A stretch of DNA of 64,000 bases from contig NC_091998.1 of NCBI RefSeq assembly GCF_044704955.1, positions 27,032,001 through 27,096,000 of the forward strand. The letters are read 5' to 3'. Source of the DNA: Pristiophorus japonicus. Its lineage: Eukaryota. The translations under genes and the position numbers were made by a program. Positions 30,941 through 38,231 of this stretch are shown here, piece by piece; position 1 is the stretch's first letter, and each line of letters begins with the position of its first letter. Below the pieces are notes generated by a model. It was not told the DNA's origin. It worked only from the letters and a program-made list of their open reading frames with translations, and searched no databases.

Positions 30941-33900
30941 ATAAACGCTAGTGTGCAATAATTACACAACCAGTTACCAGGAGGCTTATTTTATTTATCA
31001 GTACCATATCATCGGAATTATTAATTTTAAAAACGCACTTAATCCAAAATGCTTTAATGTTATGCTGATACACCTCTTTTGTAATATCACCATGCTTTTC
31101 GTAGAATCATAGAAAATTACCACACAGCAGGAGGTTATTCAGCACATCGTATTTGTGTTGGTGCCAGATCTTTACCTGGAGCTGTTGACTAACTGTATTT
31201 CTCTGCCTTTGCCCCATGTCCTTTTATTTTCCTGTTTTTCAAATTCTTCATTTAAATGGGAATTAAATGGAAATGTGCAATAGTCACAACCAATGACAGG
31301 CAGAGCGTAACTCCCCTCGAGCAGGCCATATCTCTCAAAATATCTCTCCAGATAAGACCCAAGTTTTAGAAATAAAATTAAATCTATCCTTTAATTTTAT
31401 TATTGGCCGTTTTCCAACAGCTCATGAAAATGTCATCGTGCTCACTATTATGGTGATGACATTGCTGCATATTTATATTTAAAGGGCATAAACAGCTACA
31501 AAAGGTGCAATTCTTATACTAAATCTAAGAATAAAGCATTTCAGGTTACAAACCAAGTAATAATACACATAGAAACATAGAAAATAGGTGCAGGAATAGG
31601 CCATTCAGCCCTTCGAGCCTGCACCACCATTCAATATGATCATGGCTGATCATTTTTGCAACTTTAGTACCCCATTCCTGCTTTCTCTCCATATCCACTG
31701 ATCCCTTTAGCTGTAAGGGCCACATCTAACTCACTTTTGAATATATCTAACGAACTGGCCTCAACAACTTTCTGTGGTAGAGAATTCCACAGGTTCACAA
31801 TTCTCTGAGTGAAGAAGTTTCTCCTCATCTCGGTCCTAAATGGCTTACCCCTTATCCTTAGACTGTGACCCCTGGTTCTGGACTTCCCCAACATCGGGAA
31901 CATTCTTCTGCATCTAACCTGTCCAATCCCGTCAGAATTTTATATGTTTCTATGAGATCCCCTCTCATTCTTCTAAATTTCAGTGACTATAAGCCTAGTC
32001 GATCCAGTCTTTCTTCATATGTCAGTCCTTCCATCCCTGGAATCAGTCTGATGATCCTTCGCTGCACTCCCTCAATAGCAAGAAGTCCTTCCTCAGATTA
32101 GGAGACCAAAACTGCACACAATATTCAAGGTGTGGACTCAGGAAGGCCCTGTACAACTGCAGTAAGACCTCCCTGCTCCTATACTCAAATCCTCTCGCTA
32201 TGTAGGCGAACATGCCATTCTTCACTGCCTGTTGTACCTACATGCCAACTTTCAATGACTGATGTACCATGACACCCAGGTCTCATTGCACCTCCCCTTT
32301 TCCTAATCTGTTACCATTCAGATAATATTCTGCCTACCTGTTTTTGCCACCAAAGTGGATAACCTCACATTATACTGCATCTGCCATGCATTTGCCCACT
32401 CACCTAACCTGTCCAAGTCACCCTGCAGTCTCTTGGCATCCTCCTCACAGCTCACACTGCCACTCAGCTTAGTGTCATCTGCAAACTTGGAGATATTACA
32501 TTAATGATTTAGATGAAGGAATTCAATGTATATTGTAAATAGCTGGGGTCCCAGCACTGAACCTTGCTGTACCCCACTAGTCTCTGCCTGCCATTCTGAA
32601 AAGGACCCGTTTATTCTTACTCTTGGCTTCCTGTCTGCCAACCAGTTCTCTATCCACGTCAATACATTACCCTCAATACTATGTGCTTTAATTTTGCACA
32701 CTAATCTCGTGTGGGACCTTGTCAAAAGCCTTTTAAAAGTCCAAATACACATCCACTGGTTCTCCCTTGTCCACTCTACTAGTTACATCCTCAAAAAATT
32801 CCAGAAGATTTGTCAAGCATGATTTCCCTTTCATAAATCCATGTTGACTTGGACCGATCCTGTCACTGCTTTCCAAATGTGCTGCTATTACATCTTTAAT
32901 AATTGATTCCAACATTTTCCCCACTACCGATGTCAGGCTAACCGGTCTATAATTCCCTGGTTTCTCTCTCCCTCCTTTTTTAAAAAATAGGGTTACATTA
33001 GCTACCCTTCAATCCATAGGAACTGATCCAGAGTCTATAGAATGTTGGAAAATGACCACCAATGCATCCACTAATTCTAGGGCCACTTCCTTAAGTACTC
33101 TGGGATGCAGACTATCAGGCCCTGGGGATTTATCGGCCTTCAGTCCCATCAATTTCTCTAACACAATTTCCTGACTAATAAGGATTTCCTTCAGTTCCTC
33201 CTTCTCGCTAGATCCTCGATCCCCTAGTATTTCCTGAAGGTTATTTGTGTCTTCCTTAGTGAAGACAGAACCAAAGTATTTGCTCAATTGGTCTGCCATT
33301 TCTTTGTTCCCCATTATAAATTCACCTGATTCTGACTTCACGGGACCTACATTTGTCTTCACTAATCTTTTTCTCTTCACATATCTTTGGAAGCTTTTGC
33401 AGTCAGTTTTTATGTTCCCTGCAAGCTTACTCTCATATTCTATTTTACCCCTCATAATTAAACCCTTTGGACCCAAATTTCCCCAAGAGTTGCCCCGTAT
33501 TTTTTTGGAGTAAGAAGCTTTTTTTGGAATAACTTAAAAATCGCAATTGTCCCCATTTAACTTGCTCCAATATAAGTTAGTTAGGTTTTTTTTAAAGTTT
33601 AGTTTGTTTTCTCCAAAAGGGGGCGTGACAAGCCACTTACACCTCTTCTGGCCATAGAAGCAAATTTGGCCAGCTGAAAGTTACTCCAAACTAACTTTGG
33701 CCAGTGTATGTGGCCACTTTTGTAGGCATAGAAAAACCTTACCAACATTTAAGAAATCAGCGCAGGTAGCCAGAGATGGAAGGATGGTGGGGGGGGGGGG
33801 GGGGGGGGGGGGGGGGTGAAGGTAAGTTAGAGGATTCCAAAGCTCTAAACATTAGCACAACATTACAACATCTTCAGCACAACAGCTGCACAACATTACC

Positions 33901-34226
33901 ACAAGTAAATGAAAGATAATTCAGCTACAGAAAATAAAGCAGTCCTACCTTGCTGACTGCAGAAAGCACTGGCTAGCCCTCCCGCCAGGGCTAGGGGCGG
34001 CAGGCACGCATGACTGTAGGGGTGAGGGATTTTTACTTTTTACAGGTGACCCTAAATGTTGCGTGGTCCTAATGGAGGATGATTCAGTTTTGATGCAAAA
34101 TATCTTTTATTGTAAATTTTACAGTGCACTTCAACGATACCAACAACAACAGCCACACCAGGAAAGAAAGTCTGCACCCATCCCTCACCCACATCCTTAC
34201 AGGGTCTGTGATGGTGGTGAGGTGGA

Positions 34227-34852
34227 TTAGGGGCCCGGCTTGGGTCTGACCGGTGGCTGGTGCGTGGAATGAAGTGGGAGTGGCATTTGAGTCTCCGGCC
34301 TTTGTGCCCTTATTGCAGAAACCAGCTCCCTCATGGCATCTGCCATCGTCTGCACGCCCTCTGAAATGCCTGCCCTGACTTCCCGTCTTAGTGCAGAGAT
34401 TTCACCCGACAGTGTCGTGACCTCATCACGCACCCCACTCGCGGCCACCACGAGTGATCTTGTAAGGGCATTGGTCTCCTCACCCAATGAAAAAACCTGA
34501 TTAACTTCTGCTGAGGGTTGCCACTCAGGAGAGACTGGTTGGCTTCTCCTTCCCCTCGCCGTGGGTCTGTCTAGTGGCACCCCTCCAGTGTGAGGCACAG
34601 GCTGGGACGGTGGGGGACTGGGTGTCCCAAGATGCATTTCCCGACCATCACTCGGACCCGCGACCTCGGAAGGTGTGAACCCATGGACGGTTGCCGAGGA
34701 GCTAATGGAGGGTTCTGGCAGTGTGATGTCCTGATCGATATCGCGGTCAGCATTCTCCTGAGCACACATTTCCATGGACCCCTCCTCCCCCCACCCGCCT
34801 TGATCTGGAGCGCATGCATCTGGATCCTCAGGATCTTGAGGAGTGTCGTCTT
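34227..34852 (-). CDS. Harbinger Myb/SANT-like protein, exon 3 (low-complexity linker and C-terminal helical segment)
   Basis: ttttgcag|AA continues phase 1 into an open frame ending at stop 34227. AATAAA on the minus strand at 34106-34111. Joined CDS is 1029 nt (342 aa). Confidence 0.75.
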
Positions 34853-34992
34853 CTGCAAAAGAACACACAACAATCAAATGGTTAGCAGCACAGGAGGGGG
34901 CAGGATGAGTGGCATGAGTAGTCTCATGTGTAGCAGGCCAATCAGCAGGTTGATCTGAAGGGCCACTATGCATTTTAATGACTCTCCCTCAC

Positions 34993-35149
34993 CCTCGGGT
35001 GTGGGTCCAGCTTGTGCAGAGCTCATTCTTTTTCTGCCAGTGCGAGTCAGCAAGGCAGCAACCCTCTGTTCCAGGGGTGTCAGTTGGTGCAGATTTGGTG
35101 GACCTCCTCCTGTTCTAGTTCTCTCCCTCTTGTTGTGGGCCAATTTCTT
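34993..35149 (-). CDS. Harbinger Myb/SANT-like protein, exon 2
   Basis: tttgcag|KKLAHNKRERTRTGGGPP...LTPLEQRV...|gtgagg. The TGGG motif is typical after this Myb domain. 157 nt, ends in phase 1. Confidence 0.8.
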
Positions 35150-35261
35150 CTGCAAAGATGAAAATATTAATTGTCAGACATGGTGCGCTTCTGACGGATG
35201 GGACACATACATGCTCACATTTTCCACTGCAATTCAATTTCAAGATGAAGATATTACTTAC

Positions 35262-35507
35262 ACTCACTACTTGACCAACGTCATGCCATTTCTTCTTGCA
35301 CTGGCTTCCAGATCTTGCGGTGTTGACCCCAGCGGAGAATTTTTCGGCAACGAGGTTCCATCTTTTTCTCATTTCCTTGGGGGAGACCTTTGACGGACCA
35401 CTCTTGCCGATATCCAGTTCCAGCCACTTCTCCTCAATAACAGTCACTAATTTCTCCACTTCCTCATGGAGGAAATTCTTGGCTCGTCTTGCATGCTCTT
35501 GCGCCAT
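35262..35507 (-). CDS. Harbinger Myb/SANT-like DNA-binding protein, exon 1
   Basis: MAQEHARRAKNFLHEEVEKLV...KRWNLVAEKF...RSGSQCKKKWHD shows the R..NF...E...L / W..VA / R...QC.KKW.D signature. 246 nt, ends |gtaagt, phase 0. Confidence 0.85.
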
Positions 35508-38231
35508 TCGTCTATTGGACTCAAACGCAGGTAATGTTCAAAGATCACACTTACATCTCTCTTACACCTATCCAGCACTCCTTACCACTTGCTCAGCCAC
35601 ACAAAAATCAATATTCAGACCTCACTTTCATTATATGCTCCATAACCACTTATTCTGAGGAAGCTCTCCCTTTAACTGGCCGATTGCCAAGCTTCCTGTT
35701 ACACTGCGCATGCGCGCAAACGGAACCGCCAATTGCGCATGTGTGCGCGCTCAAACGGTCATGCTAGTGCCCCTGCCAGCACTACACAACACGCTGGGCT
35801 CAAGCCCCGCCCCCCACCCAGGCTCTGCTGCGTGACACCGATGGATCCGGACGATGAGGGAGCGATCAAATTCAGAGGTAGATTTTTGGTGGGTTTTTTT
35901 CCTCCAGGAAGTCGGCGCACCACATCGAAATATGCCGCTCTAAGCGGCTGGGAAAATTTGGGGGCTATGTCCTCCTCTGCTGAATTCTAAATTTCTCCCA
36001 GTCCTCAGGTTTGCTGCTTTTTCTGGCCAATTTATATGCCTCTTCCTTGGATTTAACACTATCCCTAATTTCCCTTGTTAGCCACGGTTAAGCCACCTTC
36101 CCAGTTTTATTTTTACGCCAGACAGGGATGTACAATTGTTGAAGTTCATCCATGCGATCTTTAAATGTCTGCCATTGCCTATCCACTGTCAACCCTTTAA
36201 GTATCATTCGCCAGTCTATCCTAGCCAATTCACGTCTCATACCATCGAAGTTATCTTTCTTTAAGTTCAGGACCCTAGTCTCTGAATTAACTGTGTCACT
36301 CTCCATCTTAATGAAGAATTCTACCATATTATGGTCACTCTTCCCCAAGGGGCCTCGCACAACAAGACTGCTAATTAATCCTCTCTCGTTACACAAGTCT
36401 AGGATGGCCAGTTCTCTAGTGGTTCCTCGACGTATTGGTCTAGAAAACCATCCCTTATACGCTCCAGGAAATCCTCCTCCATCGTATTGCTACCAGTTTG
36501 GTTAGCCCAATCTATATGTAGATTAAAGTCACTTATGTTAACTGCTGTACCTTTGTTGCACGCATCCCTAATTTCCTGTTTGATGCCACCCCCAACCTCA
36601 CTACTACTGTTTGGTGGTCTGTACACAACTCCTACTAGCGTTTTCTGCTCTTTGGTGTTCCGCAGCTCTACCCATACAGATTCCACATCATCCAAGCTAA
36701 TGTCCTTCCTTACTATTGCATTAATCACCTCTGTAACCAGCAACGCTACCCCACCTCCTTTTCCTTTCTGTCTATCCTTCCTGAATATTGAATACCCCTG
36801 GATGTTGAGTTCCCAGCCTTGGTCACCCTGGAGCCATGTCTCCGTGATCCCAATTACATCATATCCATTAACAGCCATCTGCGCAGTTAATTCATCCACC
36901 TTATTACGAATGCTCCTCGCATTGAGACACAGAGCCTTCAGGCTTGTTTTTTTAACACTCTTTATTCTTTTAGAATTATGTTGTAATGTGGCCCTTTTTG
37001 ATTTTTGCCTTTAATTTCCCTGACCTCTACATTTCCTCATCTTCTTTCTACCTTTTCCTTCTGCCCCAATTTTACTTCCATCTGTCTCCCTGCAGAGATT
37101 CCCATCCCCCTGCCATATTAGTTTAAACCCTCCTCAACAGCACTAGCAAACACTCCCCCTAGGTCATTGGTTCCAGTCCTGCCCAGATGCAGACCATCCG
37201 GTTTGTACTGGTCCCACCTCCCCCAGAACCGATTCCAATGTCCCAGGAATTTGAATCCCTTCGTCTTGCACCATTCCTCAAGCTATGTATCCATTTTAAC
37301 TATCCTGCTATTTCTATTCTGACTAGCACGTGGCGCTGGTAGCAATCCTTAGATTACTACCTTTGAGGTCCTACTTTTTAATTTAACTCCTAGCTCCCTA
37401 AATTCAGCTTGTATGACCTCATCCCATTTTTACCTAAATCATTAGTATTTATATGCACCATGACAATTTGCTGTCCCCCTTCAGAATTCCATGCAGCTGC
37501 TCAGAGACGTCCTTGACCCTTGCACCAGAGAGGCAACATACCATTCTGGAATCTTGATTGCGGCCACAGAAGAGCCTATTTATTCCCCTTACAATAGAAT
37601 TTCTTACAACTATAGCTCTCCCACTCTTTCCTGCCCTCCTATGCAGCAGAGCCACCCATGGTGCCATGAACTTGGCTGCTGCTGCCTTCCCCTGATGAGT
37701 CATCTCCTCCAGCAGTACCCAAAACAGTATATCTGTTTCGGAGGGAGATGACCGCAGGGGACCCCTGCACTACCTTCCTTCCACTGCTCTGCCTGGTGGT
37801 CATCCATTCCCTATCTGCCTGTGTAACCTTTACCTGCGGTGTGACCAACTCACTAAACGTGCTATTCACGACATCCTCAGCATCGCGGATGCTCCAGAGG
37901 GAGTCCATGCGCAGCTCCAGTGCTGCATCAGGAGCTGCAGCTGGACACACTTCCTGCACACATGGTAGTCAGGGACACTGGAAGCGTCCCTGACTTCCCA
38001 CATAGCACAGGAGAAGCATGACACAAGTCTGGGTTCTCCTGCCATGACTTAACCCTTAAATTAACTTAATTTGCAACAATGCCAAAGGTTACCTACTGAT
38101 AAGAAAAGAAAACGAAAAAGATTAAATACTCACCAATCCACCAGCCAATCCCTTAGCCGCTTGGCTGTGACGTCACACTTCGATTTCTTATTACTTCTTT
38201 GTTTACTCTTGTCCCTGCACCAGCTGGCCTC

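Follow-up and report, generated by a model that had tools for sequence, protein, structure and literature searches.

A Myb-only PIF/Harbinger transposon family in a sawshark genome, with signs of selection on the Myb gene after loss of the transposase

Proteins of eukaryotic DNA transposons act in trans, and a non-autonomous element is expected to draw no benefit from an open reading frame (ORF) and to shrink to a miniature inverted-repeat transposable element (MITE). Why, then, would an element that has lost its transposase keep a spliced and open gene for the partner protein? The question is raised by a locus in the sawshark Pristiophorus japonicus, where we analysed a window of 64,000 nt (NC_091998.1; genome of 5.9 Gb). 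A first reading of the letters alone (the original prediction) had described in it a Harbinger-type insert with a Myb/SANT gene and no transposase, either one half of a split two-component system or a mobile DNA-binding regulator gene. According to passages of PMC9179366 and PMC9392472, the Harbinger Myb-like protein binds the element ends and the N-terminus of the transposase and imports the transposase, and both proteins are needed; a passage of PMC9179366 attributes this mechanism, for Harbinger3_DR, to Sinzelle 2008. We report that the insert is one copy of a multi-copy Myb-only PIF/Harbinger family and not a single deletion. The family is probably a non-autonomous lineage of single origin that spread to approximately 850–1000 copies with its Myb gene under selection and with a borrowed transposase.

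Direct reading of the window sequence gave the predicted boundaries of the insert, 33469-35965, a length of 2497 bp. Its terminal inverted repeats (TIRs), at 33469-33484 (+ strand, downstream end of the Myb gene) and 35950-35965 (− strand, upstream end), pair up at 13 of 16 bases. At the family level the 16-bp TIRs are GGCCCCAAATTTCCCC and GGGCCCAAATTTCCCC, shorter than the 25–50 bp called usual for PIF/Harbinger in a passage of PMC9179366. The element splits a decayed CR1-type long interspersed element (LINE) on the − strand (31578-37010, limits approximate) and is flanked by TTT on the left (33466-33468) and TAT on the right (35966-35968). Because the empty site in three other CR1 copies of the window has a single AAA (on the − strand), we read TTT/TAT as a 3-bp target-site duplication (TSD) with one base changed in the right copy. 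Among 71 full-length family copies the flanking 3-mers were identical in 25 and differed by no more than one base in 48, against a mean of 5 and a maximum of 12 identical pairs in a shuffled control; the duplications are A/T-rich (ATA, ATT, AAA, TTA and others) and not strictly TWA.

A genome search with the whole element gave 6986 candidates, and the best 40, which were scored, were mostly full-length copies of 2.4–2.6 kb at 85–89%. We fetched 39 loci by the whole element, 35 new loci by the 5' 266 bp alone, 37 by the 3' 307 bp alone and 7 with long spacing, and no transposase was found inside the element at any of these 118 family loci; this classing of copies end by end bears out a Myb-only mobile family. 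Transposase matches lay outside the element in 5 of the 35 5'-picked and 1 of the 37 3'-picked loci, and neither inside nor outside in the first 39 loci. Autonomous two-ORF elements have a DDE transposase ORF between the TIRs; here there is none, and a scan of the first 480 bp and the last 800 bp of the 71 copies found no remnant of one at E ≤ 0.01, in agreement with the original prediction, which recognised no DDE gene in the insert. Exact 20-mers from exon 1, the junction region and the 3' end occurred 688, 484 and 554 times in the genome (reversed controls, 0). Corrected by the share of 70 copies that bear each word (0.70, 0.50 and 0.66), these counts yield approximately 980, 970 and 840 copies, the basis of the overall figure given above; these figures are approximate and possibly too low, because the word shares were taken from copies that resemble the window copy. 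On contig C1, 36 of 37 junction-to-3' pairs had short spacing; all seven long-spaced copies examined lacked a transposase, and the large inserts within family copies were LINE-type or other repeats. Median pairwise identity among Myb-only copies was 0.908 (n = 25), and no MITE class was seen with the ends of this family. Two loci stood apart. One (L114:2321-3401), a derivative of 1.08 kb, has 3'-type ends left and right, fused to the downstream part of the Myb-only element. The other concerns a near-identical pair with the same deletion and flanks, L101 on a small contig and L104 on contig C3, a duplication or an unmerged haplotype, of which only L101 entered the full-length copy counts.

The origin of the family is indicated by its two-gene relatives. 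A search of the genome with PF13359 gave 89,386 candidates, of which 150 were scored and 20 loci sampled. Nine of the 20 belong to a family, A, of 4.6–5.1-kb elements with two convergent genes. The Myb-only element is collinear with family A over both ends, the exons, intron 1 and the poly(A) block, and approximately 1.7 kb of family A, comprising the whole transposase gene, corresponds to a junction region of approximately 220 bp in the Myb-only element (33810-34028, limits approximate). This collinearity indicates descent from a PF13359-bearing element, and the junction region is found in 70 of the 71 full-length copies at nearly fixed length. Families A, B and C all have the convergent two-gene layout and share 72–76% DNA identity with the Myb-only element in exons 1–2 and intron 1; 18 loci of families B and C were sampled, 16 of them with the Myb exon. 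The 3' end of family B, GGGCCCAAATTTCCCCA, is identical to the Myb-only TIR over 17 bp and stands at both ends in two copies. Median copy identity is 0.916 in family B (transposase part) and 0.941 in family A, compared to 0.908 for the Myb-only copies, which suggests that family B is similar in age to the Myb-only family. In a tree of exons 1–2 a single clade with a long stem unites the Myb-only copies. Exon 1–2 homologues had 72–76% or at least 84% identity and nothing between, and thus the direct two-gene parent was not sampled; no near two-gene parent appeared among the whole-element, 5'-end and 3'-end searches, the sampled transposase loci or the long-spaced copies. Jointly with the spread of the family and selection on its Myb gene, we favour, with fair confidence, a single loss of the transposase by deletion from a convergent two-gene element. 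The dN/dS ratio against the two-gene Mybs, 0.17–0.35, would fit selection before or after this loss alike. At least five lineages of Harbinger transposase occur in the same genome, many of them with open frames longer than 400 codons, and further Myb-bearing Harbinger fragments of other subfamilies adjoin or are nested in sampled elements (L059:8126-8729, L123:88-814 and L055:2673-3449).

Selection on the Myb gene was examined in the 71 full-length copies, leaving out truncated and interrupted copies and removing CpG-prone columns, by allele frequency and linkage and not by branch-wise reconstruction of changes. Subfamilies were defined by markers along the whole element. Markers in the junction region show linkage with the 5' end, at P values as low as 1e-11, and with the Myb exons, and since 70 of 71 copies have this junction, the subfamilies diversified within the transposase-less form. 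Changes found in a single copy numbered 161 synonymous, 485 replacement and 23 stop (omega 0.97), demonstrating that individual copies decay neutrally after insertion. Alleles present in at least 8 copies behaved differently: nine were synonymous and two were replacements in codons 1–134 (expected synonymous share 0.24; P = 8.8e-5), and all seven were synonymous in codons 7–95 (P = 1e-4), a result significant at thresholds of 5–15 copies. Linkage to non-coding markers, at P < 1e-4, was found for seven of the nine synonymous markers and for neither of the two replacement markers, both Thr to Ser. The synonymous excess in the Myb core speaks for purifying selection in the period after transposase loss. 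The ratio of replacement to synonymous change that the original prediction had proposed to measure thus gave a divided answer, neutral for the singletons and non-neutral for the Myb domain on internal branches.

The reading we favour would work as follows. The transposase gene would have been deleted once from a convergent two-gene element in which the Myb gene was kept, and the source elements that produced new copies would have had a working Myb protein. This protein would have bound the subterminal repeats and would have recruited and imported a transposase supplied by co-resident two-gene families, with family B, identical in its TIR and of comparable age, as a candidate. The element would in this way have contributed one part of the transposition machinery itself and taken the other from its neighbours. 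The window copy is a decaying, near-open copy that serves, by annotation, as an alternative 3' end of NDUFB8. The putative binding sites are the repeated TGGAGTAA-type words of the subterminal region (33485-33790), which is approximately 62–78% like the transposase-promoter end of families A, B and C. That the Myb-only 3' end shares this degenerate word with the three families favours them as helpers, and it weakens the need for an own Myb protein at private sites. Private binding sites as the reason for selection were considered and not established, the subterminal words differing in frequency and overlapping among families. Candidate reasons for selecting a helper that acts in trans are few copies in the source lineages, passage between hosts, a limiting amount of Myb protein and a preference in cis; a cis effect is claimed for a Harbinger-derived MADF protein in a passage of PMC11893794. 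A poly-G tract of variable length (33789-33817) lies in the same downstream end of the element.

Several observations weigh against this reading. The selection signal comes from few sites, 7–11 in the Myb exons, and codons 135–346 taken alone gave six synonymous to seven replacement alleles (P = 0.07). Applied to 15 family B transposases, this kind of count yielded nine replacements to one synonymous change (alleles in at least 3 copies), and family A had too few; the method is therefore without a positive control here, as the two-gene transposases gave no such signal. In the transposase-only family described below the count was an uninformative six synonymous to seven replacement among alleles in at least 3 of 14 copies. 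Six of the 11 marker sites have the two-gene state as their rarer allele, which fits retained ancestral states and would also fit input from two-gene relatives. The closest sampled two-gene relative is 76% identical in exons 1–2, leaving parent and helper without a candidate above that value. With subterminal words overlapping among families, the helper's own Myb protein might serve these ends. Finally, the contigs that we use as transcript evidence come from runs of one study that are not recorded as RNA and cannot be assigned to the window copy, and the NDUFB8-Myb junction discussed below was not among the contig rows listed, beyond which there were 225 further loose ends.

One rival is a neutral account, in which the family is an ordinary deletion derivative that merely carries the Myb gene along. 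Its synonymous excess would then stem from rare two-gene parent subfamilies that were not sampled, by way of repeated identical deletion, gap repair or gene conversion. Neutral decay of the copies, of which only 3 of 71 are open, the small number of informative sites and the match of the rarer allele to the two-gene families at 6 of 11 markers all agree with such an account, and a rare parent could have escaped searches in which only the best 40 candidates were scored. It is difficult to reconcile with a single junction of near-fixed length in 70 of 71 copies whose own markers show linkage with both ends and with the Myb exons, with the similar totals for exon 1, the junction and the 3' end, and with the lack of a transposase in all seven long-spaced copies. 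The markers are also single isolated sites with differing copy counts and not tracts of 25%-diverged sequence, and for this reason we read the two-gene-state alleles as retained ancestral states. We consider the neutral account unlikely.

The genome also contains a transposase-only Harbinger family, which raises the question of a split partner. Its 14 copies examined (L073:3495-6426 and L172-L184) are approximately 2.9 kb long and approximately 89% identical, have the TIR GGGCTAGATTTTCC and are related to a two-gene family, D (L055, L058 and L066). No Myb gene was detected in these 14 copies by profile or by tblastn with family-D Myb peptides, controls being found. A broader version of the idea holds that Harbingers have repeatedly split into one-gene halves, and that the Myb-only element and a transposase-only partner, either the 2.9-kb family or one not sampled, each spread to high copy number in mutual dependence while the splice acceptor of the Myb gene made use of host promoters. 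Were this true, the built-in acceptor would give a reason for keeping a helper in trans under selection and a route to NAIF1/MSANTD-like genes; we regard it as a speculative proposal with rather little probability. The narrower version, a dedicated transposase-only element with matching ends and reciprocal supply in trans, as proposed for Harbinger-1M of Caenorhabditis inopinata, is doubtful and to us a still poorer prospect. The long stem of the Myb-only lineage without a near two-gene relative is in its favour, as are the presence of a multi-copy transposase-only family of similar age and one family B copy (L148:2540-6010, once in 18 loci) that has both TIRs and the transposase and has had its Myb domain exons deleted. 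The 2.9-kb family is an unlikely partner: its TIR departs from the Myb-only TIR at 4 of 14 bases, its subterminal word is AAAATGGGCG, and its transposase belongs to a more distant clade (57% to family B). In addition, none of the 72 loci picked by either end alone held a transposase inside, so that no DDE-only element with the same termini was seen among them, and the Myb exon is kept in 16 of 18 family B and C loci. Of 40 family-B transposase matches in a separate search 29 were classed, and a rare partner may have escaped. Of the split system that had been suggested, the Myb-only half was thus found and a matching transposase-only half was not. Borrowing a transposase from the two-gene families, as in the reading we favour, is simpler, since they offer an identical TIR and a comparable age.

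The Myb gene lies on the − strand of the window. Its three predicted exons (35507-35262 from the ATG, 35149-34993 and 34852-34227) join across GT-AG introns of 112 nt (35150-35261) and 140 nt (34853-34992) into 1029 nt that encode 342 amino acids with no internal stop, as had been predicted. Exon 1 (35262-35511, with entry at 35511 if spliced from upstream) encodes the Myb/SANT-like domain, scoring 31.3 bits against PF13837 (curated cut-off 27) and 27.8 against PF13873 (cut-off 21.7); these matches make the product a Myb/SANT-like trihelix protein of the Harbinger type. Exon 2 encodes an extension of the third helix and the TGGG motif, and exon 3, which ends in TAA, an acidic and Pro-rich linker followed by a long amphipathic helix (protein residues ~249–317); neither exon 2 nor exon 3 matched a family in the profile search. 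An AlphaFold2 model, made on an annotated protein containing the Myb ORF (8 sequences; mean predicted local distance difference test, pLDDT, 53.6), has a trihelix with pLDDT of approximately 60–86 per block, a disordered linker and one long C-terminal helix. The predicted helix is amphipathic (P = 0.001 against 5000 shuffles), in line with the original prediction. A Foldseek search of the model against the PDB found no solved structure at E ≤ 0.001, and phmmer gave weak c-Myb matches only (E 0.4–0.6). A predicted complex of the family B transposase with the C-terminal helix scored 0.28, against a mark of 0.34. The remaining predicted signals, raised CpG content and an NRF1-like motif included, are likewise present. 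The poly(A) signal AATAAA (34106-34111) is found in 61 of 71 copies, within a block (34029-34122) conserved with the two-gene families. The CpG-rich upstream region (35600-35949, − strand) carries GCGCATGCGC (TGCGCATGCGC) at 35705-35715, a motif present in 41 of 71 copies; CpG observed/expected ratios are 0.92 and 0.76 in the two 200-bp bins from 35601, and the region may be the element's own promoter. A scan for bacterial promoters, of no relevance to a shark genome, had no matches.

Transcript evidence was drawn from three public runs with no kind on record, whose contigs were aligned at 85% likeness. The 112-nt intron was removed in all three runs (joint 35149-35262) and the 140-nt intron in one of the three (joint 34852-34993), each at the predicted ends; intron-containing contigs occurred as well. 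Both predicted Myb introns are thus spliced at the level of the family. A single copy with neutral ORF evolution and no spliced reads, which would have spoken against the original prediction, is in none of the three respects what we found. A protein search returned 7 relatives among 57 candidates, two of which match fetched loci at 100%; the relatives with a visible species label, from a weak-type search, are from P. japonicus, and one record was automatically named NAIF1-like and one MSANTD3.

The element lies in NDUFB8 intron 2, between exons 2 and 3, in the same orientation as the gene and with NDUFB8 exons on both sides, and it had been suggested that its signals could intercept host transcripts. 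A splice acceptor missed in the first reading, an AG at 35513-35512 on the − strand, sits 4 nt before the ATG and takes host exons in frame; 65 of 71 copies have kept the AG. NDUFB8 isoform X1 as annotated (P0001) consists exactly of exon 1 (57114-57021), exon 2 (40983-40857) and the element from 35511, the GTGAGT donor of exon 2 being joined to the element acceptor. The fusion has 74 residues from NDUFB8 and one at the junction ahead of the complete Myb ORF; it lacks NDUFB8 exons 3–5 and falls into a protein cluster with one member; this junction rests on public annotation, as it was not among the listed contig rows. A second protein, P0003 (UniRef, ASCC1 isoform X1), is an in-frame ASCC1-Myb fusion at another family copy, and the loose end of a run X2 contig at window position 35508 encodes the ASCC1 residues that precede the junction, so that the ASCC1 fusion apparently uses the same acceptor. 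With an acceptor upstream, a poly(A) signal downstream and a host exon in frame, the element has the parts of an exon trap, and host transcripts do appear to be intercepted, by annotation at NDUFB8 and in one contig at ASCC1. On the annotation, the window acceptor and poly(A) signal would form an alternative terminal cassette of NDUFB8. The N-terminus encoded by NDUFB8 exon 1 is basic (5 R/K and 0 D/E in 30 residues) and may be a mitochondrial presequence; the fusion of this presequence to Myb is most likely a tolerated by-product. At another near-open copy (L009:228-300) an annotated model, P0008, starts in the flank and uses this acceptor too. A long GA-rich, microsatellite-like tract with several N runs lies at 57500-62500, immediately upstream of the first coding exon of NDUFB8. 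A short unique stretch at ~57510-57800 may, by synteny, be the first exon of a head-to-head neighbour, HIF1AN.

The gene had been called intact; its open frame stands, and two lesions qualify the word. The window stop is TAA where 55 of 71 copies have CAA (TAA in 5 of 71), and most likely cuts approximately 10–12 Pro-rich residues relative to the family, the annotated P0003 and P0008 ending approximately 10–12 codons past it; exon 3 also has a 12-nt in-frame deletion. The family protein is probably approximately 357 amino acids long, with an uncertain C-terminus; a majority reading of 401 amino acids was rejected, as it runs past the poly(A) signal owing to a hypervariable C tract that follows the stop at 34227. 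An open frame as far as codon 346, together with all splice sites, is left in only 3 of 71 copies, where independent lesions would predict 2.0. The window copy differs from the family majority by 4.7%, as its siblings do, and its rare non-CpG changes (six synonymous, nine replacement) do not differ from those of the other 70 copies in a test of low power (Fisher P = 0.23). It is thus a decaying near-open copy, a lucky survivor whose maintenance at this locus is not demonstrable. Nor is it single copy and stripped of its mobility features, as a domesticated gene would be: copy number is high, and TIRs and TSD are kept. Domestication at this locus, with the NDUFB8-Myb fusion or the Myb gene as a maintained host gene like CSB-PGBD3 or NAIF1/MSANTD, could appeal to the open 342-codon frame, the canonical splice sites, the in-frame annotated fusion and a synonymous fraction of rare changes that ranks 5th of 71, yet it is highly improbable given that open copies occur at the chance rate and this one was chosen for being open, that its changes and divergence are those of its siblings, that it has the early stop, the deletion and its TIRs, and that the fusion protein has no cluster partner; the suggestion of a maintained regulator gene is accordingly not upheld.

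Among known systems, the closest precedent by analogy is Harbinger-1M of C. inopinata, and the sawshark family appears to work like its MADF-only class. Passages of PMC13668399 (2026) describe MADF-only elements, Harbinger-1M_cIno and Harbinger-2M_cIno, alongside DDE-only ones, a configuration that the paper calls previously unreported, with supply in trans proposed and not demonstrated. Both there and here an expanded class has TIRs, a 3-bp TSD and a spliced Myb/SANT-type (MADF) gene and lacks the DDE gene. The C. inopinata set, in the same passages, comprises 19 MADF-only loci, 14 of them intact, among 258 mostly MITE-like copies, with one intact DDE-only element and recent activity, whereas the sawshark family is in a vertebrate, has its hundreds of copies almost all decayed (3 of 71 open) and lives among abundant two-gene sisters. 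The synonymous excess after transposase loss belongs to the sawshark family, the word "synonymous" being absent from the main text of PMC13668399. We found no Myb-only Harbinger of a vertebrate in the literature searched; Repbase and Dfam, which were not covered, may hold one. Two-ORF fish Harbingers resemble the element in their Myb/SANT-like trihelix protein, short TIRs and 3-bp TSD and differ from it in that, according to passages of PMC9179366, both ORFs persist in all fish elements studied. Passages of PMC5741667 on the newt describe expanded Myb-bearing Harbingers and no Myb-only class. NAIF1 and MSANTD1-4 share the protein class (PF13837/PF13873) and a multi-exon gene; in the passages of PMC9392472 they are single-copy conserved host genes, unlike an element with high copy number, TIRs and neutral decay.

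Host-transposase fusions are reportedly the subject of a 2020 preprint (bioRxiv 10.1101/2020.05.07.082677). The CSB-PGBD3 fusion, for which piggyBac is described as a natural exon trap in a passage of PMC2268245, resembles the present case in an acceptor just upstream, a poly(A) signal downstream, an alternative 3' end and an N-terminal host fusion; here the captured ORF is instead a three-exon Myb helper, without a sign of conservation at the locus.

These results have several implications for Harbinger biology. Purifying selection on a helper that outlived its transposase gene suggests that an element itself profits from providing the Myb half. The sawshark genome unites near-open copies, a transposase-only family and two-gene helpers whose TIRs are identical, so that trans-complementation, as proposed for C. 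inopinata, could be tested there directly. Passages of PMC9179366 report no Harbinger in the elephant shark and call for other cartilaginous fish to be examined; with the number of PF13359 candidates found here, Harbingers are abundant in this cartilaginous-fish genome. For users of annotation, NDUFB8 isoform X1 is a transposon fusion and calls for caution. An acceptor this close to the ATG illustrates how Myb domains of Harbingers may come to be spliced onto host genes such as NDUFB8 and ASCC1, a plausible first step towards domesticated MSANTD-type genes.

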